Below, piece after piece: positions 563-33,113 of a DNA stretch of 64,000 nucleotides. The DNA is from Candidatus Rokuibacteriota bacterium (GTDB lineage Bacteria; Methylomirabilota; Methylomirabilia; Rokubacteriales; CSP1-6), in contig QHSP01000015.1 in assembly GCA_003220495.1 (NCBI GenBank), positions 196,610-260,609 of the forward strand, in the 5' to 3' direction. The stretch's first letter is position 1. The number at the start of each line of letters is the position of its first letter. The notes beneath the pieces were generated by a model. The model made no database searches and was not told the origin of the DNA. It saw only the letters and a program-made list of their open reading frames with translations. Position numbers and translations under genes: made by a program.

Positions 563-617
563 GCAGTGCGAGCCGCAGGCCGTCGCGGGGCTGGGGCTCC
601 GCCGGCCGAGGCGAGCG
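563..617. repeat. REP-like dispersed imperfect palindrome, copy A (GCAGGCCGTCGCGGGGCTGGGGCTCCGCCGGCCGAGGCG core)
   Basis: The same 45-50 bp element recurs intergenically at 5488, 9078, 11703 and 31541 in both orientations. This copy sits between convergent/tandem genes. Confidence 0.7.
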
Positions 618-653
618 ATATAACGAGGCGAGCGACATAACTGGAGACCCGGC

Positions 654-2399
654 ATGACCCTAGACGAGATCGACGTTCCCCACGCCCTCGTGCACGTCCT
701 CGAGGAGGCCGGCATCCAGTTCGTGTTCGGCATGCCTGGCGGCGACACCGGCCGTATCTTCGACGCGCTCCACGACTCGCGCGAGATCCAGACGATCCTC
801 GTGCGCCACGAGCAGGTCGGCTCGATCATGGCCGAGATGTACGGCCGGCTCACGGGCAAGCCCGGCGTCGTCATGGGCCAGGGGATCTTTCTTGCCTGCA
901 ACGCGCTCTTCGGCGCGCTCGAAGCGGTGAAGGGCGCCTCGCCGATGCTGCTGCTCGGCGACTTCACCGACATGGCGCCCTTCATGCACCACGCGCCCTA
1001 TCAGGCCGGGACCGGCGAGCACGGCAACCACGATCTGAGGAACCTTCTCGCGGGTGCGACCAAGTACACCGCGGCGGTCTCCGAGCCCAAGCAGGCCGTC
1101 CAGACGCTCCAGCTCGCGATCAAGCACGCCACGACGGGCAGCCCCGGACCGGTGGCGGTCATCTTCGGAAGCCGGGCGTTCGGCGCGACCGTGAAGACGC
1201 GCCGGCCACCGCGCCTGCACGCGACCGGGCGCCATCTCGCTCACGGGATCGTTCGGCCGGCGGCCGCGGACGTCGCGCGGGTCGCCGAGGCGCTGCTCGC
1301 CGCCTCGAGCCCGGTGATCATTGCCGGCAACGGCGTCCACGCCTCGCGCGCATGGGCCGAGCTCGCCGAGCTGGCCGATCTCCTCAAGATCCCGGTGGCG
1401 ACGACGGCGTCCGGGAAGAGCGCGATCGCCGACGTCCATCCGCTGGCGCTCGGCGTCTTCGGCAACTGGGGCCAGACCGTTGCCAACGAGGTCGTCTCGG
1501 CCGCCGACACGGTGCTCGTGGTCGGCTCGCGCCTGGCGCCGACCGACACCTGCTTCGAGAACCCGGAGCTGCTCGACGCCGACCGCCAGACATTCTTGCA
1601 GATCGACGTCGAGCCGCTCAACGTCGGCCGTCACTTCCCCGTGAAGGACGCGATCGTCGCCGACGCGCGGGAGGCGCTCGCGGCGCTCGCCGCCGAGCTC
1701 GGGCCGCGGCTCACGCCGGCGCGGAAGACCGCGGGGCAGAGGCGCGTGGAGCATCTGGCCGAGCTCAAGCCCCTCCATCGCTACTTCGCCGAGCCCGAGC
1801 AGCGCTCGGACGCGGTCCCGCTCCGTCCCGAGCGGGTGATCACCGAGCTCGCGCGCCGGCTCGACGCGCGCGCGATCGTCACGATGGACGCAGGAGCCAA
1901 TCGGCTCTACATGACCCACTACTTCCAGTGCAAGGGCGCGGGCACGGTATATCAGCCCTCGTCGATCGGCGGCATGGGATACGCGCTGCCGGCGGCGATG
2001 GGGGCCAAGCTCACGAGCCCGGAGCGCGACTGCGTCGCGGTCTGCGGCGACGGCGGCTTCGCGATGACGATGAACGCGCTCTTCACCGCCGCGCAGTACC
2101 GGATCCCGGTCGTCACCGTCGTGCTGAACAACAGCGTGCTCGGCTGGGTGAAGGACGGACAGCGCCGGCGCGGCAACCGATTCATCGCCTCCGAGCTCGG
2201 CCGCAACGACTATGCGCGGATCGCGCAGGCCATGGGCTGCGTCGGCGTCCGCGTCGAGTCGATCAAGGATCTCGTGGGCGAGCTCGACCGGGTCACGGGC
2301 GCCAAAGAGCCGATCGTCCTCGACGTGGTCACGACGGAGGACGCGCCCTTCTGGCAGGTGCAGTCGCCGCTCGCCAAGGAGGGCCCGGGCGGCGAGTAG
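654..2399 (+). CDS. Thiamine-pyrophosphate-dependent enzyme (acetolactate synthase large subunit-like)
   Basis: 581 aa with three-domain TPP enzyme architecture. GDG(X)n NN-type TPP-binding region (VAVCGDGGFAMTMNALFTA...VLNN). ATG at 654 matches the track. Confidence 0.85.
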   Translation: MTLDEIDVPHALVHVLEEAGIQFVFGMPGGDTGRIFDALHDSREIQTILVRHEQVGSIMAEMYGRLTGKPGVVMGQGIFLACNALFGALEAVKGASPMLLLGDFTDMAPFMHHAPYQAGTGEHGNHDLRNLLAGATKYTAAVSEPKQAVQTLQLAIKHATTGSPGPVAVIFGSRAFGATVKTRRPPRLHATGRHLAHGIVRPAAADVARVAEALLAASSPVIIAGNGVHASRAWAELAELADLLKIPVATTASGKSAIADVHPLALGVFGNWGQTVANEVVSAADTVLVVGSRLAPTDTCFENPELLDADRQTFLQIDVEPLNVGRHFPVKDAIVADAREALAALAAELGPRLTPARKTAGQRRVEHLAELKPLHRYFAEPEQRSDAVPLRPERVITELARRLDARAIVTMDAGANRLYMTHYFQCKGAGTVYQPSSIGGMGYALPAAMGAKLTSPERDCVAVCGDGGFAMTMNALFTAAQYRIPVVTVVLNNSVLGWVKDGQRRRGNRFIASELGRNDYARIAQAMGCVGVRVESIKDLVGELDRVTGAKEPIVLDVVTTEDAPFWQVQSPLAKEGPGGE

Positions 2400-2400
2400 G

Positions 2401-2883
2401 ATGCGGCACAAGAAGAAGGACGTCATGGCCCGTACCCGGCGCGAGTACGCCATCCTCGATCGCCTCGTGACCCGGCTGCGGGCCGCCGACTGGAAGCGGC
2501 CAGTGCCGCGCCCGCCGACGCGGGATCCGTGGACCGTGAAGGACGCGCTCGCCCACATCGTCTACTGGAAGGAGCACAGCGCCCGCGTCTTCCGGGGCGA
2601 GCGGCGGCTCCCGGAGATGCGCGGTCTCGACGTGAAGCAGATCAACCGTCTGATCTACCGGCGCTGGCGCCGCCGGCGGCCGGCCGAGGTCGTGGCGTGG
2701 CATCGTCGCGTCCAGCGCGACGTGCGGAAGACGCTCGCGGCGAATCCCCCGGAGTGGTTCTCGCGGCGTCAGCGCTCGCCCAAGTGGCCGGCCGATTTCG
2801 ACGCGCACTCGGCGGACCACCGGAGGGACGACATCGAGGGCGCGCTGGGGCCGGGGCGCATCAAGGGTCGTGGGCACCGGTGA
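2401..2883 (+). CDS. ClbS/DfsB-family (DinB-like) four-helix-bundle protein
   Basis: Carries WTVKDALAHIVYW and a C-terminal H..H motif pattern typical of ClbS/DfsB. The start is uncertain: ATG 2401 directly follows the upstream stop, and an alternative in-frame ATG lies at 2425 with an AAGGA ribosome-binding site. Confidence 0.55.
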   Translation: MRHKKKDVMARTRREYAILDRLVTRLRAADWKRPVPRPPTRDPWTVKDALAHIVYWKEHSARVFRGERRLPEMRGLDVKQINRLIYRRWRRRRPAEVVAWHRRVQRDVRKTLAANPPEWFSRRQRSPKWPADFDAHSADHRRDDIEGALGPGRIKGRGHR

Positions 2884-2913
2884 GGCTGGCTACGAAGCGG
2901 TCGCGCGAGCGCG

Positions 2914-4572
2914 TCATCCCAGGCCGCCGCGCAGCCCGAGCACGCGCGCGACGAGGGCGCCGGCCAGCGAGATGACCATGATGATGCACGCGACGACCAT
3001 CGCCTCCTCGAACTTCCGCTGGGCGATGAAATCGAGCTGCAGGATCGACAGCGGGCGATTGGCGCTGGTGGCGAGCAGCGCGATGTTGCCGATGTTCCGC
3101 GCCGCGCCGACGAACGTGATCATGCCCACCGCCACCAGGGTCGGCGCCATCAGCCGCAGCACGATGCGCCGGTAGGTCGCCCACCACGACGCGCCGGCGA
3201 CGCGCGAGGCTTCCTCGAGATCGCCGCCGAGCTGCAGCAGCCCGCCCTTCACGATCTGCACGCCGAGCGGCATGCCCGAAATCAAGCCGGCGATGATCAG
3301 CACCGCCATCGTGCCGTACAGCGGCCGCAGCACGGCCACGTCGAGGAACAGCCACAGGAGCGCCAGCCCGAGGATCACGCCCGGCACCGTGAAGGGAAGC
3401 CAGGAGACGACGTCGAGCGCCCGGCGGCCGCGGAAGCGCGTGCGCACGACGATGTAGGCGATCAGGGAGTGGACGAGGACCGCCGCGACCGCGGTGCCGG
3501 TCGCCAGCACGACCGTGTTCCAGAGTGAGCGCAGGAAGAGGTCGTCGGCGAGGACGGTCGTCCAGTTCTTGAGCGTCCACGGGTCGGGGATGTTGAAGAA
3601 GCCGAAGAGCTTCATGAACGTGCCGAGCACGGCGAAAGCCAGCGGCACCCCGAGCACGACGAGCGTCAGCGCGAGCGCCAGGGCGAACGCGGGCCAGCGC
3701 CAGCGTCCGAGCCGGTGGCGCCGGCTCTGGAACTGGCCGGTGATCGTCGTGTAGCGGCGGCCGCGCGTGAGCCACTGCTGGGTGAAGATCAGCGGGAGCA
3801 TCGCCGCCAGCACGAGCACCGCCAGCGCGGTCGCCGCGTCGTAGCGCGGCACGCGCGTCACGACGAGGTCGTAGATCATCGTGCTGAACACGAAGAACCG
3901 GAACGGCGCTCCCAGCACCTGCTCCACCTCGAAGGTCTGCAGCGACACCATCGTGCCGAGCAGGAGCACCGACAGTACGACCGGCGCCATGACCGGGATC
4001 GTGATCGAGAGCGCGGTCCGCGCGGTGCCGGCGCCCGCGACGCGCGAAGCCTCCTCGAAGGCCGCGTTCATGTTGCGCAAGGCCGGGGTCAGCAAGATCA
4101 CCTTGACCGTCAGCGATCCGGTGATGACGTGGATCCACACGATGCCCCAGAACGAGTAGATGTCGAACGGCCCCTTGCCGACCAGGCCGAGGCCGACGAG
4201 CCCGGTGTTGAGCAGGCCGTAGTCGGGATCGAGCAGCAGGATCCAGCTCAACGTGACGGTGAGGGTCGGCAGAAAGAACGCCGCCCAGAAGGCGAACTCG
4301 ATCCAGTTGCGGCCCGGCAGATCGGTCCGCGCGATCAGCCAGGCGACCAGCAGCGCCAGCGCGAGCGACAGAACCTGGCGGGCCACGGTGACCTTCAGCG
4401 TGTTGAGGAGCGCCGCGCGCAGGAGCGGCTCGGCGAACGCGGCGCGCCAGCCATCCAGCCCGTAGCGCGCGGGCTGCCCGGGCGGCGCCACCTGGAAGCT
4501 TTCCAGCACCACCAGGAGCAAGGGGTAGACGACGCAGAACGCCACGGCCAGCAGGACCACCGTGCAGGCCAC
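2914..4572 (-). CDS. ABC transporter permease, fused two-domain type (FbpB/iron(III)- or polyamine-type)
   Basis: 552 aa with about 12 predicted TM segments and two EAA-like loops (EEASRVAGAG... twice). Last gene of the minus-strand operon. Confidence 0.8.
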   Translation of the reverse strand: MACTVVLLAVAFCVVYPLLLVVLESFQVAPPGQPARYGLDGWRAAFAEPLLRAALLNTLKVTVARQVLSLALALLVAWLIARTDLPGRNWIEFAFWAAFFLPTLTVTLSWILLLDPDYGLLNTGLVGLGLVGKGPFDIYSFWGIVWIHVITGSLTVKVILLTPALRNMNAAFEEASRVAGAGTARTALSITIPVMAPVVLSVLLLGTMVSLQTFEVEQVLGAPFRFFVFSTMIYDLVVTRVPRYDAATALAVLVLAAMLPLIFTQQWLTRGRRYTTITGQFQSRRHRLGRWRWPAFALALALTLVVLGVPLAFAVLGTFMKLFGFFNIPDPWTLKNWTTVLADDLFLRSLWNTVVLATGTAVAAVLVHSLIAYIVVRTRFRGRRALDVVSWLPFTVPGVILGLALLWLFLDVAVLRPLYGTMAVLIIAGLISGMPLGVQIVKGGLLQLGGDLEEASRVAGASWWATYRRIVLRLMAPTLVAVGMITFVGAARNIGNIALLATSANRPLSILQLDFIAQRKFEEAMVVACIIMVISLAGALVARVLGLRGGLG

Positions 4573-4622
4573 CGACGACAGCTCGATGGCGAAGGGGCGG
4601 GGGCGCGGAACGCTCCGGGCGA

Positions 4623-5465
4623 TCAGTGCATCACGCCGCCGCCGGTCACGTTGATGGACTGACCGGTGATGTACTCGGCGGCATCACCCGCCAGGAACGC
4701 GGCGACTTCGGCCACGTCGCTCGGTCTGGCGATCCGGCCGAGCGGCGTCGACGCGGCGGTCTGCCCGATCCGCTCCTCGCGCTGCCGCTGGTCGAAGCTC
4801 CCGTCCGGCCGCAGCCCCATGTGATCTAGGCGCTCCGTCTCGGCCGCGCTCGGGCAGATCGCGTTGACCGTGATCCCCGCGGGCGCCAGCTCTTGCGCCA
4901 GGGACTGCGTGAAGCCGATGATCCCGAACTTCGACGCGCAGTACGCCGCGCGGAGCGCGCCGCCCTTCTTGCCCCACTGCGACGACATGCTGATGATGCG
5001 CCCGCGCACGCGACGTTCGAGCATCGAGCGCGCGACGGCCTGCGAGGTGATGAACGTCCCCTTGAGGTTGGTGTCGAGGACGGTATCCCACTGGTCTTCC
5101 GGCAGCTCGACGACCGGCGTCTTGTCGAGACTGCCCGGCGCGCCCGCGTTGTTCACGAGGATGTCGATGCGCCCGAACTCGCCCAGGGCCTCCGCGACCA
5201 CCTTCGTCATCTCGCTGGTCGATCGGACGTCGGCGAGCGCGGTCATCGCCCGGCGCCCGCGCTTCCTGATCTCGTCCGCGACCGCTTCGATGCCACCCCA
5301 GGCGCCCGGCGTCAACACGGGCGACACGCGTAGCCCGGTCGAAATCACATCCGTCAGGATGAGATCGGCGCCTTCGTCGGCGAACCGCCGGGCGATGGCT
5401 CGACCGAGCCCGTGCTCACCGCCCGCACCCGTCACCATCGCGATCTTGCCGTCGAGCCGTCCCAT
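4623..5465 (-). CDS. SDR-family oxidoreductase
   Basis: TGAGGEHGLG Rossmann motif, NNAG, and catalytic S...Y..AS K pattern (YCASKFG). Confidence 0.85.
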   Translation of the reverse strand: MGRLDGKIAMVTGAGGEHGLGRAIARRFADEGADLILTDVISTGLRVSPVLTPGAWGGIEAVADEIRKRGRRAMTALADVRSTSEMTKVVAEALGEFGRIDILVNNAGAPGSLDKTPVVELPEDQWDTVLDTNLKGTFITSQAVARSMLERRVRGRIISMSSQWGKKGGALRAAYCASKFGIIGFTQSLAQELAPAGITVNAICPSAAETERLDHMGLRPDGSFDQRQREERIGQTAASTPLGRIARPSDVAEVAAFLAGDAAEYITGQSINVTGGGVMH

Positions 5466-5487
5466 CAGCCGCCTCCTCCTTCCTACT

Positions 5488-5534
5488 CGCGCCTCGGCCG
5501 GCGGGGCCCCAGCCCCGCGACGGCCTGCAGCGCG
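5488..5534. repeat. REP-like element copy B (reverse orientation)
   Basis: CGCGCCTCGGCCGGCGGGGCCCCAGCCCCGCGACGGCCTGCAGCGCG. Intergenic, between the FAD oxidoreductase and SDR genes of the same operon. Confidence 0.7.
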
Positions 5535-5540
5535 AACTGA

Positions 5541-6653
5541 TCACCCGGCCGTGACGCCAGCGGCCAGGAAGCGATCCGGGCGGAACGGCGCCAGGGTGGG
5601 GCTGGGCTTGTCGCGAACGATCTCATCCGCCAGCAGGCGGCCGAGCAGCGGGCCCAGCGTGATCCCGCTGTGGGTCGCGATCAGCCAGCCGTTGGCGAGG
5701 CCAGGGATCCGACCGGCGATCGTGTGTCGGTCGCCCGGCATGGGGCGCACGCCGATGCGGCTGTCGACGATCCGGAGCGGGCGCGCCGCGGGAAACACGC
5801 GCCCCGCCCGCTCGAGCAGCAGCGCCGACAGCGACGCGGGCGAGCCCGAGTTCGCCGCGAGCGTGTCGACGTCCTCGGCCCCGAGCAAGAGTCCGCCGCC
5901 GGCGTCGGGCCGGAGGTGGAGCCCCGGCGCGTGCACGACCCGGCCGAGCGCCACTGCCGGGCGGGAGGTGACCGCCAGTAAGCCGGGTACGCGGCCGACC
6001 GGGATGACCACGCCGAGCGGCTCGAGGAACGCTTGCGTGGCCGGGCCGACACAGACGAGGAACGAGCGCGCGGTCACCTCGTCGTCGTCGACGACGAGGG
6101 CCTCGATTCGATCACCGCGCATGCGGAGCGATCGGACCGCCTTGCCGTCTCTCACTTCAGCGCCACGCGCCGAGGCGGCAGCAAGAAGGCGTCCGATCAG
6201 TCGCGGGGCGTCGAGCCACGCGTCGGCGGCAAAGAACGCGACGTCGCGGACCTGGTCGGGGATGGCGAGGCCGGGCTCGAGCTCGGTCGCGCGCTCGCGG
6301 CTGATCCAGTCAGCCGGGTAGCCCCGGCTCGCGAGCCGATGGACGCGCTCGCGGAGCTCTCGCTCCGCGTCGCTATCGTCCGCCCACTCGAGCGAGCCCC
6401 CCTCGTGATAGCCGGCGTCGCCGCCGAGCTCGCGCGACAGGTCCCGGTGAGCGGTCATCCCGGCCGCATTGAGCCGATGGTAGACATCGGGCTCCTTCCT
6501 GACCGAGTTCAGCCATGCGAACGAGCTGCCGCTCGTCCCCCCGCCGGGCGTGCCGGCATCGAGCGCCAGCACGCGGGCACCCGCCCACGCGACCGCGTAG
6601 ACGGCCGAAGCGCCCACGATCCCGAGTCCGACGACCGCAACGTCGCATTTCAT
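5541..6653 (-). CDS. FAD-dependent oxidoreductase (DadA / glycine or sarcosine oxidase-beta-like)
   Basis: N-terminal DVAVVGLGIVGASAVYAV dinucleotide-binding motif. 370 aa, the typical size for this class. Confidence 0.8.
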   Translation of the reverse strand: MKCDVAVVGLGIVGASAVYAVAWAGARVLALDAGTPGGGTSGSSFAWLNSVRKEPDVYHRLNAAGMTAHRDLSRELGGDAGYHEGGSLEWADDSDAERELRERVHRLASRGYPADWISRERATELEPGLAIPDQVRDVAFFAADAWLDAPRLIGRLLAAASARGAEVRDGKAVRSLRMRGDRIEALVVDDDEVTARSFLVCVGPATQAFLEPLGVVIPVGRVPGLLAVTSRPAVALGRVVHAPGLHLRPDAGGGLLLGAEDVDTLAANSGSPASLSALLLERAGRVFPAARPLRIVDSRIGVRPMPGDRHTIAGRIPGLANGWLIATHSGITLGPLLGRLLADEIVRDKPSPTLAPFRPDRFLAAGVTAG

Positions 6654-6741
6654 CGGCGACCTCCTGTGCAGGCCTGGTCCCCCACCGCGGGCGCATTATA
6701 GGGTTCCTCGGGCGCTCTTGGCATGCTCGCCCTCACACGGC

Positions 6742-7851: not shown

Positions 7852-7871
7852 CGGGTCCGCGGCCGAGGGGC

Positions 7872-9017
7872 TCAGCGGCCCCAGAGCCGCCGCGTGGCCA
7901 GTCGCGCGCCTTCCACGAGCGCCTCGAACTTCGCCCACGCGATCCGGGGGTGGCCGACTCGCGGCCCGAGGCCGCAGTCCGTGCCCGCGATCACGTTCTC
8001 TCTCCCAACCAGCTCGGCGTACCTGACGAGACGCTCGGCGACGAGCTCTGGATGCTCGACGAAATCGCTGGCGTGGCCGACCACGCCGGGGATGAGGATC
8101 TTGCCGTCCGGCAGCTTCACGCTCTCCCACACGCGCCACTCGTGCTCGTGGCGCGGGTTGGACGCCTCGATCGAGTAGGCCTGCGCCCGGACCGCCAGGA
8201 CCAGGTCGACGAGATCACGCAGCGGCAGGTCGTGCTTGTGCGGTCCGTGGTAGCTCCCCCAGCAGACGTGAAAGCGCACACGCTCCGGCGGGATGTCGCG
8301 TAGCGCGTGGTTGAGGGCTTCGATGCGCAGCGCGGCGAACTTCCGGTACTGCGCAAGTGTCAGCGTCGGGTGGATCTGCCAGGCGTCGGCGAGATCGGGA
8401 TCGTCGATCTGAAGGAGGAAGCCGGCGCGAACGATCGCGTCGTATTCGACCTTCATCGCCTCGGCGATCGCGGCGAGGTACGCCTCGTCGCTCGGGTAGT
8501 GAGCGTTGCGCAGCCAGTGCTCGATGGTGCCGGGCGCCACCGCCGGCAGGAACGCCTCGGTCACCGAATGACCGGCCAGCGCCGCCTTGAAGTTGGCGCT
8601 GTCCGTCTCGACGGCCGCCTGTCCGATGTAGCTGAGGGGCGCCTTGCAGACGGCCTCGCGGCCGGCCATGTTGCCGCGCCCCGCGAAGTACTCCGGGAAT
8701 TCCAGGGCGTCCCGGCCGTAGATCATCGCAAGGACACGCTCGCCCTCGGCGAGCGCACGCTCTTCGACCCCGCCGAGGCGCTCGCGCGCGTAGGTCGTGA
8801 AGTTGCGCTTCGATTCCTCGCCGTCGTTGACGATATCCAGGCCGACGGCGACCTGCTGCCTGACGACCTCGGCGACGGCGCGTCGAACGCGACTGGCGAA
8901 GGCGGCGTGATCGTAGGGGCGGCCGGTGTCCCGGGCGATCAGCAGGTCGCGCAGATCGTCGGGCCGCGCCAGGCTTCCGGCGTGCGTCGTCAGGATGCGC
9001 TCGGTACTGCGTTTCAC
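7872..9017 (-). CDS. Core-MetE family protein (cobalamin-independent methionine synthase catalytic-domain-like, zinc type)
   Basis: 381 aa. THAGSLARP N-terminus, RFHVCWG, NPRHEHEWRVWE and GTDCGL zinc/homocysteine-site motifs. GTG start. First gene of the minus operon. Confidence 0.8.
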   Translation of the reverse strand: MKRSTERILTTHAGSLARPDDLRDLLIARDTGRPYDHAAFASRVRRAVAEVVRQQVAVGLDIVNDGEESKRNFTTYARERLGGVEERALAEGERVLAMIYGRDALEFPEYFAGRGNMAGREAVCKAPLSYIGQAAVETDSANFKAALAGHSVTEAFLPAVAPGTIEHWLRNAHYPSDEAYLAAIAEAMKVEYDAIVRAGFLLQIDDPDLADAWQIHPTLTLAQYRKFAALRIEALNHALRDIPPERVRFHVCWGSYHGPHKHDLPLRDLVDLVLAVRAQAYSIEASNPRHEHEWRVWESVKLPDGKILIPGVVGHASDFVEHPELVAERLVRYAELVGRENVIAGTDCGLGPRVGHPRIAWAKFEALVEGARLATRRLWGR

Positions 9018-9077
9018 CGTTCGCGTAAGATAGTCGCGCCCGGGGGCCTGGTCAATCGAGCGAGCGCCCTCGATGGT

Positions 9078-9130
9078 TGTGCGCGCTGCAGACTGTCGCG
9101 GGGCTGGGGCCCCGCCGGTCGAGGCGCGCC
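9078..9130. repeat. REP-like element copy C
   Basis: GCGCGCTGCAGACTGTCGCGGGGCTGGGGCCCCGCCGGTCGAGGCGCGCC in the divergent intergenic region. It is read through in-frame by the over-extended track ORF 9077. Confidence 0.7.
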
Positions 9131-9151
9131 TCCAGAACAGGAGGATTCATC

Positions 9152-10261
9152 GTGCGCCAGGATCTCTCACGTCGTGACCTGCTGCGCACCGCCGCGCGGG
9201 CCGGCGCCGCCGGGCTCGTGGCTCCGGCGAGTCGTCTCGCCCACGCCGCGACCATCTCGCCCGAATGGGAGCAGATGGCCGCCGCCGCCCGGAAGGAGGG
9301 CAAGGTCTCGGTCAACACCTTCACCGGCCAGGGCTACGCCCGCATCCTCAAGCTCTTCGCGCAGGCCTATCCGGAGATCAAGCTCGAGCACACGAATCTC
9401 GAACCCGTCGAGTTCTCGCCGCGGGTCATCCAGGAGCGCAAGGCCTCCGTGTACACCTGGGACGTGGCGACCATGCCGATGAGCACCGCGCTCCAGGTGC
9501 TCAAGCCGGCCGGCGTCTGGGATCCCGTGCGGCCGGTGATCGTGGCGCCGGAGGCCAAGAACGACGCGAACTGGCGCGGCGGCTTCGACGCCGGCTTCCT
9601 CGACCGCGACCGAAACCTCGCGTACGCCTTCACGCTGGTGCGCGCGCCCGGGGTCTTCGTCAACGTCGATCAGGTCAGGGAGGGCGAGCTCCGGAGCGTG
9701 AAGGGCCTGCTCGCGCCCAAGTGGAAGGGCCGCATCGCGATCTCCGACCCGCGCACGATCGGCTCGACCTTCTGGCCCTTGACGGCCGCCCGGCTGCGGC
9801 TCGGCGATGGAATCATGAAGCAGATCCTCGTCGATCAGGAGCCGGTGCTGAGCCGCGACCGGAACCAGCTTACCGAGTTCATGGTGCGCGGGCGCTATCC
9901 GATCGCGATCGGGCTCAACGCGCTCGCGCTCCAGGACTTCCAGGCCCACGGCGTGGGCAAGAACGTGAAGACTCAGCCCTTACCCGAGCTCGACTATCAG
10001 TCGTCGGGCAGCGGCGTGTGGCTCCTCAACCGGGCGCCGCATCCCGGCGCGGCGAAGCTCCTCATCAACTGGCTCCTGACGAAGGACGCTCAGGTCGCGT
10101 GGGCCCGGGAGCTTCAGACCAACAGCCGCTTCGTGGGTGTGGAGCCGGGCGATCCGCAGGCGGTCGTTCCGCCGGGGCTCACGCTCTTGCAGATCGACGC
10201 CGAGGAGCAGCTGCCCGAGCTCGTCAAGACCCAGGACATCGCCCGGCAGCTGATCAGGTAG
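9152..10261 (+). CDS. ABC transporter substrate-binding protein (family 1, iron(III)/polyamine-like), Tat signal
   Basis: GTG start 6 nt after GGAGGA. SRRDLLRTAARAGAAGL twin-arginine signal. About 370 aa periplasmic binding fold. Confidence 0.8.
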   Translation: MRQDLSRRDLLRTAARAGAAGLVAPASRLAHAATISPEWEQMAAAARKEGKVSVNTFTGQGYARILKLFAQAYPEIKLEHTNLEPVEFSPRVIQERKASVYTWDVATMPMSTALQVLKPAGVWDPVRPVIVAPEAKNDANWRGGFDAGFLDRDRNLAYAFTLVRAPGVFVNVDQVREGELRSVKGLLAPKWKGRIAISDPRTIGSTFWPLTAARLRLGDGIMKQILVDQEPVLSRDRNQLTEFMVRGRYPIAIGLNALALQDFQAHGVGKNVKTQPLPELDYQSSGSGVWLLNRAPHPGAAKLLINWLLTKDAQVAWARELQTNSRFVGVEPGDPQAVVPPGLTLLQIDAEEQLPELVKTQDIARQLIR

Positions 10262-11693: not shown

Positions 11694-11702
11694 GGTCTAT
11701 GG

Positions 11703-11750
11703 GCGCGCCGCGGCCGGCGGGCCCAGCCCCGCGACGGCCTGCCGCGCGCA
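11703..11750. repeat. REP-like element copy D (reverse orientation, 1-bp deletion variant)
   Basis: GCGCGCCGCGGCCGGCGGGCCCAGCCCCGCGACGGCCTGCCGCGCGCA, lying between the MFS start and the cyclase gene. Confidence 0.65.
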
Positions 11751-11799
11751 TCACATTATCAGCGCTGAGGCTCGCGCGCTTGGCGTAAGATTGCCGGCC

Positions 11800-12747: not shown

Positions 12748-12760
12748 GCCGGGCCGGGCG

Positions 12761-13849: not shown

Positions 13850-13852
13850 GCC

Positions 13853-19309: not shown

Positions 19310-19344
19310 TCGGGACCCGGCGCCGTCGACCGGTGGTCTCGGTA

Positions 19345-19363: not shown

Positions 19364-19463
19364 GAAAATTCTGTTATCCTCATGCTCGGGACGACGAGAG
19401 AGGAGCCCGAATGCGGCTGGCACGAGCGAACGGAGCGTGGCGCCCGAGCGGAGCATCGCCGAG

Positions 19464-21188: not shown

Positions 21189-21325
21189 CTCTGGGCCTCC
21201 GTGCCCAATCACAGAATCCTAACCCCGCGGCGGGGCCGAGACCAGCAGCTTTTGGCGGTTTGACAGAGGCCCGAGGCTGTCTCTAGGGTAGTTGTCGGAA
21301 ATCGGACCGGGGAGGCCCAAGAGGG

Positions 21326-23676: not shown

Positions 23677-23694
23677 GCGACAGCGCCGGTCTCC

Positions 23695-25998: not shown

Positions 25999-26002
25999 CG
26001 GC

Positions 26003-26938: not shown

Positions 26939-27031
26939 CGCGCGAATTCCTCCTTGAGCGGGAGCTTGCCGAGGGCCCGACGATACCATAGCCTCTTGCC
27001 TGCGACCGATCACCGAAGACCGGGGGATCTC

Positions 27032-27871
27032 ATGAAGCAGCTGACCAAGAACGTGTTCGTCGAGACCGAGCTCCGCGGCTCGAATCACGGCCTCGTCGCC
27101 ACCTCGGACGGCATCGTGCTGATCGACACCCCGCACAAGCCCAGCGACGCCATGCGGCTCAGGGCTGACGTCGAGCGACGCGGCCGGCTGCGCTACATCC
27201 TCAACACCGAGCCGCACGGCGACCACTGGACCGGGAACGCGTACTTCGACGCGCCGGTCGTCGCCCACGAGGGCGTGCGTCGACGCATCCTGACGACCGA
27301 CCTGGCCGCGCACGTCGCGCGCGTCGCCTCGTTCGGGCCGGAGGAGCCGAAGCTACTCGAGGGCTACAAGCCCAACGCGCCGGTGATCACGTTCGAGAGC
27401 GAGATGAAGCTCCACGTCGGCGACCACACCTTCCGGCTGGTCCACATGCCCGGCCATACGGCCTACCAGGCGGCGGTGATCGTCGAGGAAGAAGGCGTCG
27501 TCTTCACGAGCGACAACATCTTTTGCAAGGTCCACACGTGGCTGCAGGAAGCCGATCCGGACCTGTGGCTCACGGCGCTGGAATCGCTCCGGGGCCTCCG
27601 CGAAGACACGTTCGTCCCGGGCCATGGACCGATCTGCGACAAGCGCTACCTCGACGAGCAGGGCGCGTTCATCCGCGAGTGGGTCGACTCCGTGCGCAAG
27701 AGCGTGGGGCAGGGGAAGACGAAGGAGCAGTGTCTGGCCGACCTCACGGCGATGACGGATCGCTATCCGATGGACGTCGGCCAGGACGGCATGGCGCCGA
27801 TGGTCATGAAGATGAACGTGGCCAACCTGTACGACTTCGTCACGGGCGCCGGGATCCACCGGCGCAATTGA
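27032..27871 (+). CDS. MBL-fold metallo-hydrolase
   Basis: EPHGDHWTG (HxHxDH) and further His ligands (HMPGHT, PGHG). Start recomputed to MKQLTKN. Confidence 0.8.
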   Translation: MKQLTKNVFVETELRGSNHGLVATSDGIVLIDTPHKPSDAMRLRADVERRGRLRYILNTEPHGDHWTGNAYFDAPVVAHEGVRRRILTTDLAAHVARVASFGPEEPKLLEGYKPNAPVITFESEMKLHVGDHTFRLVHMPGHTAYQAAVIVEEEGVVFTSDNIFCKVHTWLQEADPDLWLTALESLRGLREDTFVPGHGPICDKRYLDEQGAFIREWVDSVRKSVGQGKTKEQCLADLTAMTDRYPMDVGQDGMAPMVMKMNVANLYDFVTGAGIHRRN

Positions 27872-28030
27872 CGACGCGCCTCGACCTCGCCCGCCGCGAC
27901 TAGCGCGTCGCCGGCCAGCTCTGCAGCGACTCCGGGTGGCGACGTCGCTCGGTCCGACCGTCGTTGAAGAGGCCGCTGCCCCTGATCACGTGGTAGATCT
28001 CGTCGGCGCCCGGGTGGCGATGGATCGGCT

Positions 28031-28375
28031 TCAGGTCGACGAATTCCAGGCGCCCTCCCTCTCAGAGGCGAACAGCTCGACGGTGCCCCGCCGGTTGTCG
28101 GTCAGCGCGAAGACCTCGTAGAACTCGATCTGCGGAGGCATCCCGTAGCGCTCGACGATGCCGTCGAGCCACGAGCCCCCGTAGAATCGCCTGGCGTCCT
28201 CGAGCGTCTCCCACTGATAGACGCCGCCGGCCCAGCCGCTCTCGCTCCAGATGAAGTGCTTGCTGATCAAGCCCTTCACCGGCTGGAACCCGGGCGCGAT
28301 CTTGTGGAAGTGCGCGCGGCACGCGTCGTAGTCGATGTGTGCTGGCAGCTTGTAGCGAACGGTGGCGGTGATCAT
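28031..28375 (-). CDS. YdhR-like small monooxygenase-fold protein
   Basis: 114 aa from MITATV with a GGAGG ribosome-binding site. Collinear with YdhR-family proteins (…GGVYQWETLEDARRF…). Confidence 0.55.
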   Translation of the reverse strand: MITATVRYKLPAHIDYDACRAHFHKIAPGFQPVKGLISKHFIWSESGWAGGVYQWETLEDARRFYGGSWLDGIVERYGMPPQIEFYEVFALTDNRRGTVELFASEREGAWNSST

Positions 28376-28507
28376 GGGGCCTCCCGTCTCCTTCAGCCGG
28401 CTCCCGAGCGTCCGGCGGCGAACCCGCCAGGCGTGGTGCATGGTAGCAAGGCCGGCCGGGAGTCGTCACGCGCGGTTTCCGGAAGGGGCGTTGACAGAGT
28501 GTTCGGA

Positions 28508-28526
28508 TTAGGTCATCCTAACTCTC
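28508..28526. promoter_or_regulatory. IdeR/DtxR-like iron box TTAGGTCATCCTAACTCTC overlapping a TTGACA-N17 promoter
   Basis: TTAGG-N5-CCTAA inverted repeat, 13 of 19 matches to the IdeR consensus. Sits 40 bp upstream of the cupredoxin-FTR1 iron-uptake genes, with TTGACA at 28491. Confidence 0.5.
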
Positions 28527-28565
28527 CCTGGATTGGGGCCTTAACCCGAGAGTCGGAGGGTCGCG

Positions 28566-28910
28566 ATGCGCAGAAGGCTCACGCTCCTGATCGCCGGTCT
28601 GGTCGCGGGTGTCGTCGTGGCTGCGGGAGCGGCCTTGGCCGCGGACGCGCCCCCGGAGATCGCGGTCACCATCGACAAGGATCAGTTCCAGCCGAGCGAG
28701 ATCAAGGTGAAGGCGAACACCCCGTTCGTGCTCGTCGTCACCAACAAGAACGCCAAGGCGGCGGAGTTCGAGAGCAAGGATCTCCGTGTCGAGAAGGTCG
28801 TGCCGGCCGGCAAGACCGTCAACGTGCGCATCCGCGCGCTGAAGCCCGGCACCTACCCCTTCTTCGACGACTTCAACAAGGCGGCGGCCGGCCGCATCGT
28901 CGCCGAGTAG
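28566..28910 (+). CDS. Secreted cupredoxin-like protein (FtrB/EfeO-cupredoxin-like partner of the FTR1 permease)
   Basis: Signal peptide MRRRLTLLIAGLVAGVVVAAGAALA. Roughly 90-aa beta-sandwich domain. GGAGGG ribosome-binding site. Confidence 0.6.
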   Translation: MRRRLTLLIAGLVAGVVVAAGAALAADAPPEIAVTIDKDQFQPSEIKVKANTPFVLVVTNKNAKAAEFESKDLRVEKVVPAGKTVNVRIRALKPGTYPFFDDFNKAAAGRIVAE

Positions 28911-28921
28911 CCCCCAGACCG

Positions 28922-29776
28922 ATGGGCGGTACCTTCGTCATCACGCTTCGCGAGGGCTTCGAAGCCGCTCTCGTCCTCGGTATCGTCTACACGTATCTCC
29001 AGAAGATCGGCGCCGAGCGGCAGTACCGCTACGCGACCCGCGGCGGGCTTCTCGGCGTGCTCGCCAGCATCGCGCTCGGCGTGGTCGTCACCGCGCTGTC
29101 CGGCCCGCTCCTGGATCTGGGTCCCGACGTGATCTGGCTCGGCGTGATCTTCGTCGCGGTGGTCGTCCTCACGTGGCACGGGTACTGGATGCGGCAGCAC
29201 GCCCGCGCGATGAGCGGCGACGTCCAGCGGCAGATCGACGCGGCGCAAGCCACCCACCGAATGTGGATCATCGGCGTGATCGCCTTCACCGGCGTGTTTC
29301 GCGAGGGGGCCGAGACGGTGCTGTTCCTGTGGGGTCTCCTGACCCAGGCGACCTCCACGTCGGGGTGGGCGAGCGCGCTCGGAGCCGTCCTCGGGCTCCT
29401 CACGGCGGCCTCGTTCGGCTGGGCGATCTTCCGCGGCGGCCGACACGTGAGCCTACAGCGGTTCTTCGGCGTGACGTCGGTCTTCCTGCTGCTGCTGGCG
29501 GCCGGCATGTTCAGCACCGGCATCGGCCGCCTCGAGGTCATGGGATTCCTTCCGGCGACACCGACCGCATGGGACACGACGTTCGTGCTCGACGATCACG
29601 GCGTCATCGGCGGATTCCTGAATGGGCTGATCGGCTACCGCTCGCGACCCTCGACGCTCGAGGCGGGGAGCTACCTCCTTTATCTGCTCGTTGCGGGCAC
29701 CCTCGTGTTTCGCTCGGACGTCTCAAGCCCTCGGTCGCGCGCGCCGAAGGGGCGCATCCCGACTCACGTCGCCTGA
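28922..29776 (+). CDS. FTR1/EfeU-family high-affinity iron permease
   Basis: Two REGxE motifs (REGFEAAL, REGAETVL) in TM1/TM4 and 7 TM segments. Follows the cupredoxin gene with a 12-bp gap. Confidence 0.85.
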   Translation: MGGTFVITLREGFEAALVLGIVYTYLQKIGAERQYRYATRGGLLGVLASIALGVVVTALSGPLLDLGPDVIWLGVIFVAVVVLTWHGYWMRQHARAMSGDVQRQIDAAQATHRMWIIGVIAFTGVFREGAETVLFLWGLLTQATSTSGWASALGAVLGLLTAASFGWAIFRGGRHVSLQRFFGVTSVFLLLLAAGMFSTGIGRLEVMGFLPATPTAWDTTFVLDDHGVIGGFLNGLIGYRSRPSTLEAGSYLLYLLVAGTLVFRSDVSSPRSRAPKGRIPTHVA

Positions 29777-29809
29777 CGAAGCCCGGGCGCACTCGCCGCG
29801 GCCGCGGCA

Positions 29810-29837
29810 TTGACTTCCCCCGACCACGCGCTACCAT
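29810..29837 (+). promoter_or_regulatory. Sigma-70-like promoter TTGACT-N16-TACCAT
   Basis: Lies 43 bp upstream of ATG 29880. Nearly identical promoter architecture (CCACGCG-N-TACCATCC) to that upstream of the paralogous SBP gene at 35238. Confidence 0.45.
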
Positions 29838-29879
29838 CCTGCGGGGAATCCTGACCTGAAGCCTCAGCGAGGAGGCACC

Positions 29880-31505
29880 ATGGTGGGCCGGTCGATCGAT
29901 CGTCGCGCATTTCTCACGGGCGCTTCAGCGGCGGCCGCAGCCGTCGCCGGCGCGCCCCTCATCAAGCCCGCGCGCGCCAGCGCCGCCGGCGAACGCCTCG
30001 TCGTCGCCGTCGGGCAATGGGGCATCGAGACGCCGTTCGCGTGGCGGTCGAGCCAGTCCGAGAAGACTCTGTGGGACTGCGCGTACGACCCCTTGATCAT
30101 GCGCGATCCCAAGACATTCGAGTATCGTCCGGGGCTCGCCACGGAGTGGAAGCCTTCGAACGAGCTCAGGACGTGGACCTTCAAGCTGCGCTCCGGCGTG
30201 CCATTCCACGAAGGCTACGGCGAGATGACCGCCGAGGACGTGAAGTTCACGGTCGAGCAGAACCTCAAGCCCGATTCCCAGGGCGGGTCCGCGCCGTTCT
30301 TCCGCATGCACCTCGACCGCATCGAGACGCCCGACAAGCACACGGTCGTCATGCACTTCAAGAACCGGGTCTGGGAAGTGCCGTCGAACTTCACCCAGTT
30401 CGTCGGCTACCAGAACATCACGTCGAAGAAGTACATCGAGACGGTCGGCGAGGACAAGGCGGCGCTCCACCCGATCGGCACCGGGCCCTTCCGACACGTC
30501 GAGGGCAAGCAAGGCGACTATCACCGCTTCGAGGCCGTCGCCAACCACTGGCGCAAGACGCCCGCCTTCAAGGAGCTCGTCATCCGGCGCATCCCGGATC
30601 CCGCGACGCGGCTCGCCGGGCTTCGCGCCGGGGAGATCGACATCGGCAACGTGTTCGGCGACTACCTCGACCAGGCCAAGAAGTCCGGGCTCCGAATTCA
30701 CGAGACGCCCAACGCCGCGTGCCACTGGATGGTCCTGCAGGGCCAGACGACGCCGGACCGCGAGGACTATTGCCCGACCTGCCCCTGGGCCGGCGAGCCC
30801 AAAGATATGAAGAGCCAGGAGAACGCGCGCAAGGTCCGGCTCGCGCTCAACCTCGCCGTCAACAAGAAGACGATCGTCAACGCGCTCTGGAAGGGCCTGG
30901 GCTCCGAGGCGCCCTTCGCGTACTGGTACTATCCGTTCCACAAGGGCTTCAGCCGCGACTGGAAGGTCCCACCGTACGATCCCGAGCGCGCGAAGAAGCT
31001 CCTGGCCGAAGCCGGCCACGCCGGCGGCTTCGAAGTCCGGGTGAATCCCCTGGTCATGACCTACGCGCTCGACGGCCCCGACATGGTCGAGGCGGTCGCG
31101 CTCGACTGGGAGAAGATCGGCATCAAGGTCCGGCGCGTTCCCGAGGCCTTCAGCAACTTTCTTCCCAAGAACCGCGCCCGGAAGACGAACAAGACCCACT
31201 GGGTGTACGGCTCTCCGCCCTTCGACGAGCCCGTCCTGGCCTGGCAGCGCTGCATCTACTCCAAGGGCCCCTTCAATCTGCTGGCCGACGGACCATACGA
31301 CGAGGACGTCGACACGATCTCACGCGAGCTCGACGGCGAGAAGCGCGCCCGCATGACCCAGGCGCTGGGTCAGAAGCTTTACTCCGAGTATCACGGCGTG
31401 ATGCTCGGCGTCAGGTCACTCACGTGGGCGGTGAGCAAGAAGGTCAACAGCTGGCAGACCCTGGTCTACGTGCCGCTCGAGAACAACTACGAATACGTGA
31501 GCTGA
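29880..31505 (+). CDS. ABC transporter substrate-binding protein, family 5, Tat signal
   Basis: DRRAFLTGASAAAAAVAGAPL signal. 541 aa. About 80 % identical to the paralog at 35238. Confidence 0.85.
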   Translation: MVGRSIDRRAFLTGASAAAAAVAGAPLIKPARASAAGERLVVAVGQWGIETPFAWRSSQSEKTLWDCAYDPLIMRDPKTFEYRPGLATEWKPSNELRTWTFKLRSGVPFHEGYGEMTAEDVKFTVEQNLKPDSQGGSAPFFRMHLDRIETPDKHTVVMHFKNRVWEVPSNFTQFVGYQNITSKKYIETVGEDKAALHPIGTGPFRHVEGKQGDYHRFEAVANHWRKTPAFKELVIRRIPDPATRLAGLRAGEIDIGNVFGDYLDQAKKSGLRIHETPNAACHWMVLQGQTTPDREDYCPTCPWAGEPKDMKSQENARKVRLALNLAVNKKTIVNALWKGLGSEAPFAYWYYPFHKGFSRDWKVPPYDPERAKKLLAEAGHAGGFEVRVNPLVMTYALDGPDMVEAVALDWEKIGIKVRRVPEAFSNFLPKNRARKTNKTHWVYGSPPFDEPVLAWQRCIYSKGPFNLLADGPYDEDVDTISRELDGEKRARMTQALGQKLYSEYHGVMLGVRSLTWAVSKKVNSWQTLVYVPLENNYEYVS

Positions 31506-31523
31506 TCGAATAGGGGAGGGCCT

Positions 31524-33113
31524 ATGAGCCTCCATGTCCACGCACGCCTCTGCCGGCGGGGCCCCAGCCCCGCGACGGCCTGCAGCGCACACGGCCACCG
31601 GATCGCCTCGCTCCTGACGGCCGCCCTGCTGGTGCTCGCCGCGAGCGCGGCGGGCGCCGGCCAGCCCGGTGAAGCGGTGATGGCGTGGCACGTCACGCTC
31701 GCGCCGACGTGGTTCGATCCGTCCACGGCGCCGCCGCAGATCACACCGTTCGGCATGCTCTACGCCATCCACGACGCGATGGTCCGCCCGCTTCCCGGGA
31801 GCAAGATGGGCGCGAGCCTGGCGGAGTCGTGGCGGGAGAGTGGTGACGGCCTCACGTACGAGTTCAAGCTGCGGCCCGGTCTCAAGTTCCACAACGGCGA
31901 CCCGGTCACCACCGAGGACGTGAAGTTCAGCTACGAGCGTTACCGGGGCGCGGGCGCGAAAGAGCTCCAGACGCGCATTCGCCAGGTCGACATCGTCGAT
32001 CCGCTCACGATCCGCTTTCAGCTCAAGGAGCCGTGGCCCGACTTCATGACTTTCTACGGTACGACCGCCACCGCGGCGGGGATCGTCGTGCCCAAGAAGT
32101 ACCTCACGCAGGTCGGCGAGGAGGCGTTCCGCAAGCAGCCGATCGGCGCCGGCCCATACAAGCTGGTGAGCCACACGCCCGGCGTCGAGGTCGTGCTCGA
32201 GGCCTTCCCGGGCTACTGGCGCCACGCCCCGTACGTCAAGCGCCTGATCATGAAGAGCGTCACCGACGGGACCACGCGCGCGGCGATGCTGAGGACGGGC
32301 GAAGCGGACATCGCGTATGCGCTCGACGGCCCGGATGCCGACAACGTGAAGCGCGACCCGCGCGTGCAGATCGTGGCCTCGCGCCACGCCTCGATCAACT
32401 GGCTCGAGTTCGCCGATCAGTGGGATCCGAAGTCGCCCTGGGCCGATCGGCGCCTGCGGCTGGCGGTCAACCACGCGATCAACCGCAAGGCGATCAACGA
32501 GGCCGCCTGTCTGGGCTTCTGCCCGCCCGCGGGCGTCATCGTGCCCCGCGTGATGGACTTCGCGCTCCAGGTCGAGCCGCCGGCCTACGACCCGCAGCGG
32601 GCGAAGCTGCTCCTCGCGGACGCCGGCTATCCGAACGGGATCGACGCCGGCGAGCTCGTCCCGATCCCGCCGTTCTTCACAATGGGCGAGGCGGTCGTGA
32701 ACTACCTCAACGCCGTCGGGATCCGCGTGACCATGCGCCAGATGGAGCGCGCGACCTTCTATACGGCGTGGCGCGAGAAGAAGCTCCGTCCGCTGTTCAT
32801 CACGGGTGTCGGCAACTCGGGCAACGCCGCGAGCCGCGTACAGGAATTCATCTTCTCCAAGGGAACCTACGCCTACGGGGGCTACCCGGACATCGACGAT
32901 CTCTTCGAGCAGCAGGCGCGCGAGCGCGACACGCGCAAGCGCGAAGCGCTCCTGCACCGGATCCAGCAGCTCACGATCGACCGGGTGATGTTCGCCCCGA
33001 TCATGGATTTCCGCGCGTTGATGGGGATCGGGCCGCGCGTGACCGAGCACACGATCACCTCGATCCACAACTCGCCGTTCCCGTCCTACGAGGACATGCG
33101 GATCAAGGACTAG
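31524..33113 (+). CDS. ABC transporter substrate-binding protein, family 5 (signal peptide; N-terminus overlaps a REP element)
   Basis: Strong GGGAGG ribosome-binding site before ATG 31524. A hydrophobic h-region (IASLLTAALLVLAASAAGAG) is required for export, so the start must lie before or within the REP copy. Confidence 0.8.
   Translation: MSLHVHARLCRRGPSPATACSAHGHRIASLLTAALLVLAASAAGAGQPGEAVMAWHVTLAPTWFDPSTAPPQITPFGMLYAIHDAMVRPLPGSKMGASLAESWRESGDGLTYEFKLRPGLKFHNGDPVTTEDVKFSYERYRGAGAKELQTRIRQVDIVDPLTIRFQLKEPWPDFMTFYGTTATAAGIVVPKKYLTQVGEEAFRKQPIGAGPYKLVSHTPGVEVVLEAFPGYWRHAPYVKRLIMKSVTDGTTRAAMLRTGEADIAYALDGPDADNVKRDPRVQIVASRHASINWLEFADQWDPKSPWADRRLRLAVNHAINRKAINEAACLGFCPPAGVIVPRVMDFALQVEPPAYDPQRAKLLLADAGYPNGIDAGELVPIPPFFTMGEAVVNYLNAVGIRVTMRQMERATFYTAWREKKLRPLFITGVGNSGNAASRVQEFIFSKGTYAYGGYPDIDDLFEQQARERDTRKREALLHRIQQLTIDRVMFAPIMDFRALMGIGPRVTEHTITSIHNSPFPSYEDMRIKD
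31541..31591. repeat. REP-like element copy E (reverse orientation), embedded in the 5' coding region/signal-peptide n-region of the SBP gene
   Basis: CGCACGCCTCTGCCGGCGGGGCCCCAGCCCCGCGACGGCCTGCAGCGCACA. It translates in-frame as CRRGPSPATACSAH. Confidence 0.65.

Follow-up and report, generated by a model that had tools for sequence, protein, structure and literature searches.

A 64,000-nt stretch of DNA from a Candidatus Rokuibacteriota bacterium (contig QHSP01000015.1, positions 196,610 to 260,609 of the forward strand; hereafter the window) contains five copies of a palindromic unit of approximately 62 nt. These are members of an interspersed repeat family of the Rokubacteriales (Methylomirabilota), resembling the repetitive extragenic palindromic (REP) elements of other bacteria, and we consider that the unit is most likely co-transcribed with adjacent genes as a hairpin in intercistronic spacers or 5' untranslated regions (5'-UTRs). 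The initial annotation of this DNA had proposed a dispersed palindromic family, which is borne out by copies beyond the window, by covariation within the stem and by polymorphism in both presence and copy number; its description of that family as genome-specific does not hold, since the element is common to approximately 30 species-level Rokubacteria/Methylomirabilota metagenome-assembled genomes (MAGs) among the matches listed.

The conserved unit comprises a 22-nt core (GTCGCGGGGCTGGGGCCCCGCC) with 20 nt before and 20 nt after it, i.e. it is longer than the 45–50 bp first assigned to it, and has the consensus GG[Y]AGTGCG[C/A]GC[Y]GCAGG[C/A]CGTCGCGGGGCTGGGGCCCCGCCG[G/T]CCGAGGCG[C/A]GCCTAT[R]AA. 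It folds as a long imperfect hairpin of 19–23 bp. Each window copy, read from the outside in, forms a GCGCGC/GCGCGC stem, an internal loop, a GGCCG/CGGCC stem, a UC bulge and GCGGGGC-uggg-GCCCCGC, with minimum free energies of -33 to -40 kcal/mol; this fold confirms the two arms around a central loop described in the initial annotation, to which the outer GCGCGC/GCGCGC stem is now added. The conserved upper stem and loop correspond to GCGGGGCUGGGGCCCCGC. The unit ends in a CTATRAA tail that is followed by a purine-rich Shine-Dalgarno (SD) sequence, and at its head positions -19 and -16 are G in 88% and 81% of copies, the two bases between them being variable (GTAG in 20 and GCAG in 22 of 138 copies; by pentamer, GCAGT 20, GTAGT 15, GTTGT 10, GAAGT 10 and GTCGT 9, n = 138).

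The hairpin is maintained by compensatory changes. Its lower stem covaries, alignment columns 31 and 58 being occupied by CG in 84 copies, AU in 29, UA in 6 and GC in 4; further double changes occur at four pairs neighbouring these columns, and altogether 9 of the 19 stem pairs have them. Both partners are changed in 71 cells, where shuffles give 16 ± 3; 93% of cells are paired, a proportion that falls to 39–51% once the partners are slid. That the core of 22 nt is invariant in this 138-copy alignment is by construction, the copies having been found by exact pattern; copies found instead by covariance model include the loop variants CCGGG, CUGAGG and CGGGGG and a second core type, GCCCGGGGGCTGGGGCCCCCGGGC, in which pairing is kept, and in these the loop and upper stem are nearly invariant. 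Two subfamilies occur within the same genomes, GCGCGC...GCGCGC (C-type) and GCGAGC...GCGAGC (A-type), the latter with tandem G.A/A.G in place of two Watson-Crick pairs. The element is also found embedded in a longer composite repeat (L005, L028, L053, L054, L070, L072, L089 and L105, where L numbers denote contigs; mostly MAG SMAG_U4595), of the form …CGAGGCGTATGCCGCGCATGCG…CCTCCGG…CCGGGG…ACCCGA…TTGAGGCG, in which extra base pairs (TCC/GGG) replace the internal loop; this composite is a distinct, longer subfamily.

Scanning species-representative genomes with GTCGCGGGGCTGGGGCYCCGCC returned at least 115 blocks, and scanning metagenomes with the exact 22-nt core returned at least 120 contigs, so that copies are not restricted to the window: more than 235 further contigs carry the exact core outside it. 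A census by fuzzy matching was discarded, the near-palindromic core having matched both strands. Of the 115 genome blocks listed, 102 belong to approximately 25 MAGs labelled Candidatus Rokubacteria, Rokuibacteriota, Methylomirabilota or Methylomirabilia and, among the matches listed, nearly all labelled core-bearing contigs are Candidatus Rokubacteria/Methylomirabilota MAGs (approximately 30), the remainder being unlabelled metagenome contigs. Density across some 30 species-level MAGs, again among the matches listed, is roughly 20–80 copies per Mb, and a model scan located approximately 17 extra sites in 810 kb of loci. Eleven of the 115 blocks contain the full element under the labels Binatia, Acidoferrum, Gemmatimonadales, Gaiellaceae or 'uncultured bacterium', the full-length contigs binned to other phyla being L024, L090 and L102 (Acidoferrum), L065, L071, L111 and L114 (Binatia), L038 (Gemmatimonadales) and L094 (Gaiellaceae). 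The flanks of the Binatia-labelled L071 are 84–89% identical to Rokubacteria contig L036, suggesting binning or labelling problems, and such contigs are probably mis-binned or mislabelled; matches in Sanguibacter and Elioraea involve the core only and look like chance. Viral contigs (IMG/VR) gave zero matches to the core, and a phage origin was accordingly rejected. The literature searched contained nothing linking Rokubacteria with REP elements, their transposases or palindromic repeats, and the core sequence appears in none of it. The family is therefore apparently undescribed; the novelty lies in the family as such, in its conservation throughout the clade, in its arrangement as direct arrays and in its position before the SD, the class of REP-like repeats being well known.

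The orientation of the element follows the local direction of transcription. In two pooled samples (genome loci with the window, and metagenome contigs), nearly all copies are intergenic; copies located between co-directional genes are sense in 82 instances and antisense in 22 (79% sense, p = 3e-9). An SD-preceded start codon lies within 25 nt past the tail in 78 of 253 copies (8–23 nt in the first sample and 7–25 nt in the second, mode 12–15 nt), whereas an SD-preceded start on the opposite strand lies within 25 nt of the head in 13 of 253 (0–21 and 8–23 nt, respectively; p = 2e-12 for tail side versus head side). The upstream stop codon falls between -5 and +5 nt from the head in 30 of 51 cases, and is often the head's own TGA or TAG. 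The typical copy thus takes up the whole distance from stop codon to SD. Where the flanking genes diverge, the element is closer to the sense gene in 11 of 14 cases, and the Thr-Tyr-Gly-Thr tRNA operon of L003 carries three sense copies in its spacers (in the related MAG L014, the Tyr-Gly spacer is 12 nt). Replication-strand bias was rejected as the cause of this orientation, because opposite orientations within 1–12 kb follow the local gene: window copies 1–4 alternate + - + - within 12 kb, each sense to its adjacent gene, and the same is seen in L028, L052, L098 and L078. This bias of orientation and position lends added support to the reading that the hairpin is co-transcribed and has a structural or stabilising role.

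A very stable GC-rich hairpin placed directly after stop codons might also be expected of an intrinsic terminator or attenuator of the U-less, 'I-shaped' kind, ending or modulating intergenic transcription, and the initial annotation had offered both a stabilising and an attenuating role. The data speak strongly against the latter. No U-tract follows the hairpin, the T-run position being taken by the CTATRAA tail and then the purine-rich SD; the terminator scan marks no copy; convergent ends are depleted (4 copies, versus 21 in divergent 5' regions, p = 9e-4); and copies lie inside a tRNA operon and in arrays. The lack of a U-tract and the depletion from convergent regions make a terminator or attenuator role so unlikely that we give it almost no credence, leaving a stabilising or structural co-transcribed hairpin as the best reading of the earlier proposal.

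A dedicated cis-regulatory RNA, i.e. a leader or operator for one conserved protein or ligand whose large regulon mimics a repeat, would likewise be sense-oriented and lie at a fixed distance from the SD, and the near-invariant loop and upper stem of the model-found copies, together with covariation in the lower stem, are compatible with such a function. However, the flanking genes are unrelated, comprising in different places a thiamine pyrophosphate (TPP) enzyme, a short-chain dehydrogenase/reductase (SDR), solute-binding proteins, a major facilitator superfamily (MFS) transporter and a tRNA operon; approximately 20% of copies are antisense and one lies inside a coding region; and the arrays (up to 3 units), the polymorphism in copy number and the presence of a nested copy are the behaviour of a repeat, not of an operator. 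Nor does any Rfam family match, the window giving no hit at gathering thresholds and only hairpin noise in E-value mode (<=17.8 bits, E >=0.4). We consequently regard a dedicated regulatory RNA as very improbable. The intergenic position of the copies and the unrelated functions of their neighbours likewise dispose of the concern that their similarity might reflect a conserved coding motif.

Copies have been gained and lost; some are partly deleted or nested in another copy, and others have been amplified into head-to-tail arrays. Adjacent copies (<=400 nt) comprise 34 direct pairs, mostly with a period of 59–66 nt (periods of 59, 60, 62, 63, 64, 65 and 66 nt are observed), versus 1 inverted pair 392 nt apart; the arrays contain 2–3 units, with three identical units in L019, and orthologous junctions differ by having two units versus one (L187/L157, L178/L130 and L047/L174). 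Comparison with related genomes revealed filled, empty and remnant sites. In L020 the element lies exactly between TGA and AGGAGA, where L027 has TGA-CAAA-AGGAGA, and the 'empty' sites of L067, L007, L036 and L027 retain head-like or tail-like pieces, indicating that the hairpin was deleted there, rather than that the site was never occupied. In L011 (4275–4417) a 68-nt copy of the second core type is nested in the loop of a standard copy. Separately, the copy in L209 that is orthologous to L210 (~6917) has its loop replaced by approximately 17 unrelated nt (GCGGGGC-TGAGCTAATCCGAAAAA-CCCCGCC), which together with the nested L011 copy suggests that the hairpin loop is itself a hotspot of insertion or rearrangement. 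In orthologous filled pairs whose coding flanks are 85–93% identical, the units are 90–97% identical in 7 of 8 cases and 80.6% identical in the eighth, so that the element is at least as conserved as coding sequence.

A uniform target-site duplication is lacking: at every offset, flanking direct repeats occur in approximately 10% or fewer of 108 single copies, and the 6–7 nt flanking repeats seen in single cases (GTAGTG, CGATGA, GTAGAAG) differ in position. On this basis a miniature inverted-repeat transposable element (MITE), as a non-autonomous DDE derivative with terminal inverted repeats and a duplication of fixed length, was rejected. The same observation is expected of HUH enzymes, and so bears on the classical explanation that the hairpins are DNA substrates of a domesticated Y1 (HUH) transposase, the REP-associated tyrosine transposase (RAYT), encoded by one or few genes per genome; on this explanation, the asymmetry between strands described below would reflect recognition of one DNA strand and the orientation bias only which insertions are tolerated. 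An imperfect palindrome with a G-N-N-G head (GTAG and GCAG in the numbers given above), an insertion nested in a hairpin loop, co-existing A- and C-type subfamilies and strong sequence conservation between species all fit. Against this, the head carried reportedly as a hallmark by REP/RAYT systems, a conserved 5' GTAG or GT(A/G)G beside the palindrome, is not conserved here, its middle two bases varying, and the predominance of direct over inverted pairs means that the inverted doublets of REPIN/BIME type are absent, for which reason that identity was rejected.

Neither was a transposase found. Using phmmer with E. coli TnpA_REP (identical to PDB 4ER8_A), IS200 TnpA and IS608 TnpA (the latter two matching Pfam Y1_Tnp) against all open reading frames (ORFs) of >=70 aa in 886 kb and 768 kb, i.e. 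~1.65 Mb around ~280 copies, no Y1/RAYT/IS200-type ORF was detected at E<=10, although RAYTs are divergent and one elsewhere in the genomes could escape such a search. A tblastn search for a RAYT or IS200/IS605 transposase nearby returned nothing, the ORFs between inverted copy pairs encode ordinary enzymes or permeases, and the Pfam matches listed for the window proteins (25 of 52 families) are all metabolic or transport families, which on that listing alone leaves room for a singleton transposase. The initial annotation's idea of a RAYT target thus gains no support from the sequence sampled or from the direct arrangement of doublets, and we judge mobilisation by a RAYT to be unlikely, though it is the main alternative.

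Several further identities were considered and rejected. A clustered regularly interspaced short palindromic repeat (CRISPR) array would contain unique spacers, whereas here the period equals the unit length and the sequence between cores consists of conserved head and tail, identical between units (e.g. L019). A micro-ORF (GTG...CTA-TGA, 18 codons) or translational-coupling peptide is contradicted by the presence of T at the would-be stop (+17) in only 48% of copies, by periods that are not multiples of 3 and by the existence of indel variants. A promoter within the TATRAA tail would be without a -35-like partner and would have A, not T, at position 6, and the promoter scan marks no copy. The observations that do characterise the family are those of a REP in the broad sense (a short imperfect palindrome, extragenic, in many dispersed copies and with a compensated stem), accompanied by an arrangement like that of mycobacterial interspersed repetitive units (MIRUs): the spacers of operons contain direct tandem units that are variable in copy number and follow the direction of transcription.

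Asymmetry between the two strands of the element also points towards RNA. On the strand shown, non-canonical cells of the stem comprise 75 G.U versus 16 A.C and 101 G.A versus 8 C.U, the great majority of mismatches being types that only the sense strand tolerates. The mean predicted RNA fold is -38.5 kcal/mol for the sense and -35.7 kcal/mol for the antisense strand, with the sense fold the more stable in 113 of 138 copies. We infer that the element is co-transcribed with its neighbours and that constraint would act on the sense-strand RNA hairpin. A long hairpin may be the only kind of 62-nt insert that leaves stop codon and SD spatially adjacent, and the element would be tolerated in tightly coupled junctions because its base rejoins the two. 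By analogy with REP, ERIC and Correia elements, the hairpin probably affects RNA stability, as a barrier to RNA processing or to exonucleases, or as a site of RNase processing; as a barrier, it would stabilise the 3' end of the upstream cistron and the 5' end of the downstream cistron, and in either role it would uncouple the stabilities of neighbouring cistrons.

Several points weigh against this interpretation. Two positions that define the subfamilies (U.G 24/63 and G.A 19–21/66–67) account for most of the strand asymmetry, which could derive from descent from two master copies, not selection, or from folding of one DNA strand during transposition. Approximately one fifth of copies are antisense and one window copy (copy 5) is translated, so that orientation is a bias and no rule. 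Tight spacing on both sides is also expected from survivorship alone, if only insertions in compact stop-SD-start junctions are tolerated, and conservation at orthologous sites could result from gene conversion among copies. Nevertheless, we favour the co-transcribed hairpin as the likeliest account of the family. A more speculative, and in our view rather improbable, proposal is that the element is a self-propagating RNA-hairpin module, not a RAYT-type REP, whose spread is tied to transcription and which would form a clade-wide mobile 'intercistronic insulator'. Two routes are conceivable, transcription-coupled or RNA-templated insertion, and homogenisation by a dedicated hairpin-recognising protein; either would jointly explain the gene-following orientation (including that in the tRNA operon), the precision of placement between stop codon and SD, and the identical 22-nt core in approximately 30 species.

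Within the window (G+C 67–71%), a covariance model built from the 138 copies (R1) and run with filters off over the whole sequence identified exactly five copies (Table 1), confirming the five or more reported in the initial annotation; the runner-up scored 15 bits, and all five lie in the first 32 kb. A 30-nt consensus, for which shuffles give a chance expectation of zero, located four of these with up to 3 mismatches, and the 22-nt core is exact in three. Copy 4, at 11703, was missed by this ungapped search because its core is 2 nt shorter, and was found by repeat search (D5) and by the covariance model.

Table 1. Copies of the palindromic element and associated sites in the window
Feature	Position	Strand	30-nt consensus match	R1 score (bits)	Remarks
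Copy 1	562–623	+	578–607	75.8	A-type subfamily (GCGAGC...GGCGAGC)
Duplicated 17-nt tail of copy 1	607–641	+			CGAGGCGAGCGAYATAA, 2.1 copies
Copy 2	5480–5541	-	5496–5525	74.5	C-type; 22-nt core perfect; -39.8 kcal/mol
Copy 3	9075–9136	+	9091–9120	80.7	C-type; lower stem compensated (GACTG/CGGTC)
Copy 4	11696–11755	-		60.6	Core 2 nt shorter (GCGGGGCTGGGCCCGC)
Copy 5	31535–31596	-	31551–31580	67.9	Antisense, in frame within SBP_bac_5 gene 31524–33113
Unoccupied site	63509–63521	+			Upstream TAG and downstream GTG start 4 nt apart (TAGGGTAGTGGAC)

With genes called from codon-position G+C and Pfam, the contexts of the copies are as first described, i.e. between co-directional genes (copies 1 and 2), in divergent regions (copies 3 and 4) and at a gene 5' end (copy 5), and the functions of the flanking genes are unrelated. 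Copy 1 lies between the stop codon of a Meth_synt_2-like gene (TAG 559–561) and the ATG (654) of the TPP-enzyme gene, sense to both of these + strand genes; a C>T change in its core gives a G.U pair on the sense strand, and the orthologous site in L033 (MAG AR30) is filled too. Copy 2 occupies the full spacer between the stop codon of a DAO oxidoreductase gene (5541–5543) and the SD and ATG (5465) of a short-chain dehydrogenase gene, again sense to both flanking genes, which are on the - strand; an identical dehydrogenase is encoded on 7 contigs (ENA and JGI assemblies), with the 75-nt spacer containing copy 2 in 7 of 7. Copy 3 separates a Meth_synt_2-like gene (-, start 9017) from a divergent solute-binding protein gene (+), its tail being followed by 5 nt, AGGAGGA and the GTG start of the latter at 9152. 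Copy 4 lies between divergent genes for the MFS transporter (-, ATG 11693) and a cyclase (+, ATG 11800), with its tail directly adjoining the transporter ATG. Copy 5 falls within the first 25 codons of an SBP_bac_5 gene whose SD (31513) and ATG (31524) lie upstream of it, and encodes approximately 21 additional residues (VHARLCRRGPSPATACSAHGH), placed after the start codon and ahead of the hydrophobic signal-peptide core, an arrangement that is also present in L044 (AR30). At the position orthologous to the unoccupied site, MAG AR27 (L037) carries a full element with GTAGTG flanking it on both sides.

Some neighbouring features merit separate mention. In L037 (6590–6625), the gene downstream of the inserted element is without a canonical in-frame start; ATC aligns with the window GTG start and a new GGGGAG SD precedes it, for which an assembly error, a shifted start or use of a non-canonical one are possible explanations. 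Overall, AR30 contigs are 86–88% identical to parts of the window, with one local tract at 96–100%: this tract, of approximately 600 nt (31160–31760), matches AR30 contig L044, the flanking 100-nt bins being 74–93% identical, and runs from the end of one solute-binding protein gene across the spacer and copy 5 to include the signal peptide of the following one. Its appearance is that of recent recombination or gene conversion centred on the junction that carries the element. Another palindrome, at 46944–47017, is located between two convergent genes, whose ends are at 46952 (+) and 47006 (-); it gives weak R1 matches on both strands (~15 and ~10 bits) and is likely an ordinary bidirectional terminator-type hairpin outside the family. 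Further along the window, a gene for a 702-aa protein (33113–35218, -) has no counterpart in AR30 contig L044, which is otherwise collinear and jumps from window position 33113 to 35227, i.e. a 2.1-kb indel between two paralogous SBP_bac_5 genes. A tandem duplication at 61498–61947 (period 225 nt, 2.0 copies, 97% identical) is aligned by L037 with overlap, suggesting a single copy in that relative. Three Meth_synt_2-like genes (1–558, 7875–9017 and 36879–38045; inverted repeats I1–I4, 70–76% identical) and three SBP_bac_5 genes (29880–31502, 31524–33110 and 35181–36869; D1, 79% identical) form paralogous sets in both orientations, indicating repeated duplication of transporter and enzyme cassettes.

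Rokubacteria are abundant uncultured soil bacteria with large genomes, on whose repeats apparently nothing has been published. The element marks intercistronic junctions and 5'-UTRs, and may be mis-called as coding sequence: long spurious ORFs traverse it, and in one genuine gene it has become part of the signal peptide. Some assembly breaks are probably attributable in part to the element, which, as a clade-specific DNA signature, can also flag wrongly binned contigs. Its sense-strand and pre-SD bias differs from the pattern of textbook REPs, which are biased to 3' ends and form inverted clusters; should this bias reflect function at the RNA level, the element would be a natural example of a mobile hairpin that tunes operon expression, and if the insulator proposal were true it would shape operon expression in Rokubacteria.

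Comparison with known systems places the family close to, but distinct from, several of them. REP/BIME/REPIN elements of Enterobacteria and Pseudomonas, which are mobilised by RAYT (TnpA_REP), are likewise short GC-rich imperfect palindromes, extragenic and present in many copies per genome, with co-existing subfamilies, stems kept by compensatory change and no target-site duplication; they too often lie directly after stop codons in operons, and effects on mRNA stability have been proposed for them. The Rokubacteria unit differs in being longer (62 nt, 19–23 bp), in its G-N-N-G head instead of a conserved GTAG, in clustering as direct head-to-tail arrays and not inverted doublets, in its enrichment upstream of starts and in divergent regions with depletion at convergent 3' ends, in the absence of a RAYT from the ~1.65 Mb sampled and in having one 22-nt core common to approximately 30 species-level genomes. 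The SMAG elements of Stenotrophomonas maltophilia are GTAG-headed REP-like hairpins, often in head-to-head or tail-to-tail dimers, that occur as single units and clusters, frequently within 10–20 nt of start or stop codons, and are proposed to fold in mRNA. The family described here shares with them palindromic hairpins, single and clustered, near start and stop codons, whereas its head is degenerate and its dimers are direct.

ERIC/IRU and Correia (NEMIS) elements are repeats of 100–160 bp with terminal inverted repeats, the latter with a TA duplication and promoter elements, and exert orientation-dependent effects on neighbouring mRNAs through RNase E or RNase III processing; strains differ in having their sites filled or empty. 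Like these, the Rokubacteria element is a palindromic repeat with filled and empty sites, and would, as we infer, be transcribed as they are; unlike Correia, it has neither TA duplication nor promoter elements. Mycobacterial MIRUs are direct tandem units of 46–101 bp in the intercistronic spacers of operons, oriented with transcription and differing in copy number from strain to strain; they are not long hairpins, contain small ORFs in phase with their neighbours and have ends that overlap the flanking stop codons. The Rokubacteria unit, by contrast, is a long hairpin with periods of 59–66 nt and a GTG-to-stop frame that is not conserved, yet it resembles MIRUs in its direct tandem units, in their orientation with transcription, in a copy number that varies (two units versus one here) and in its overlap with stop codons.

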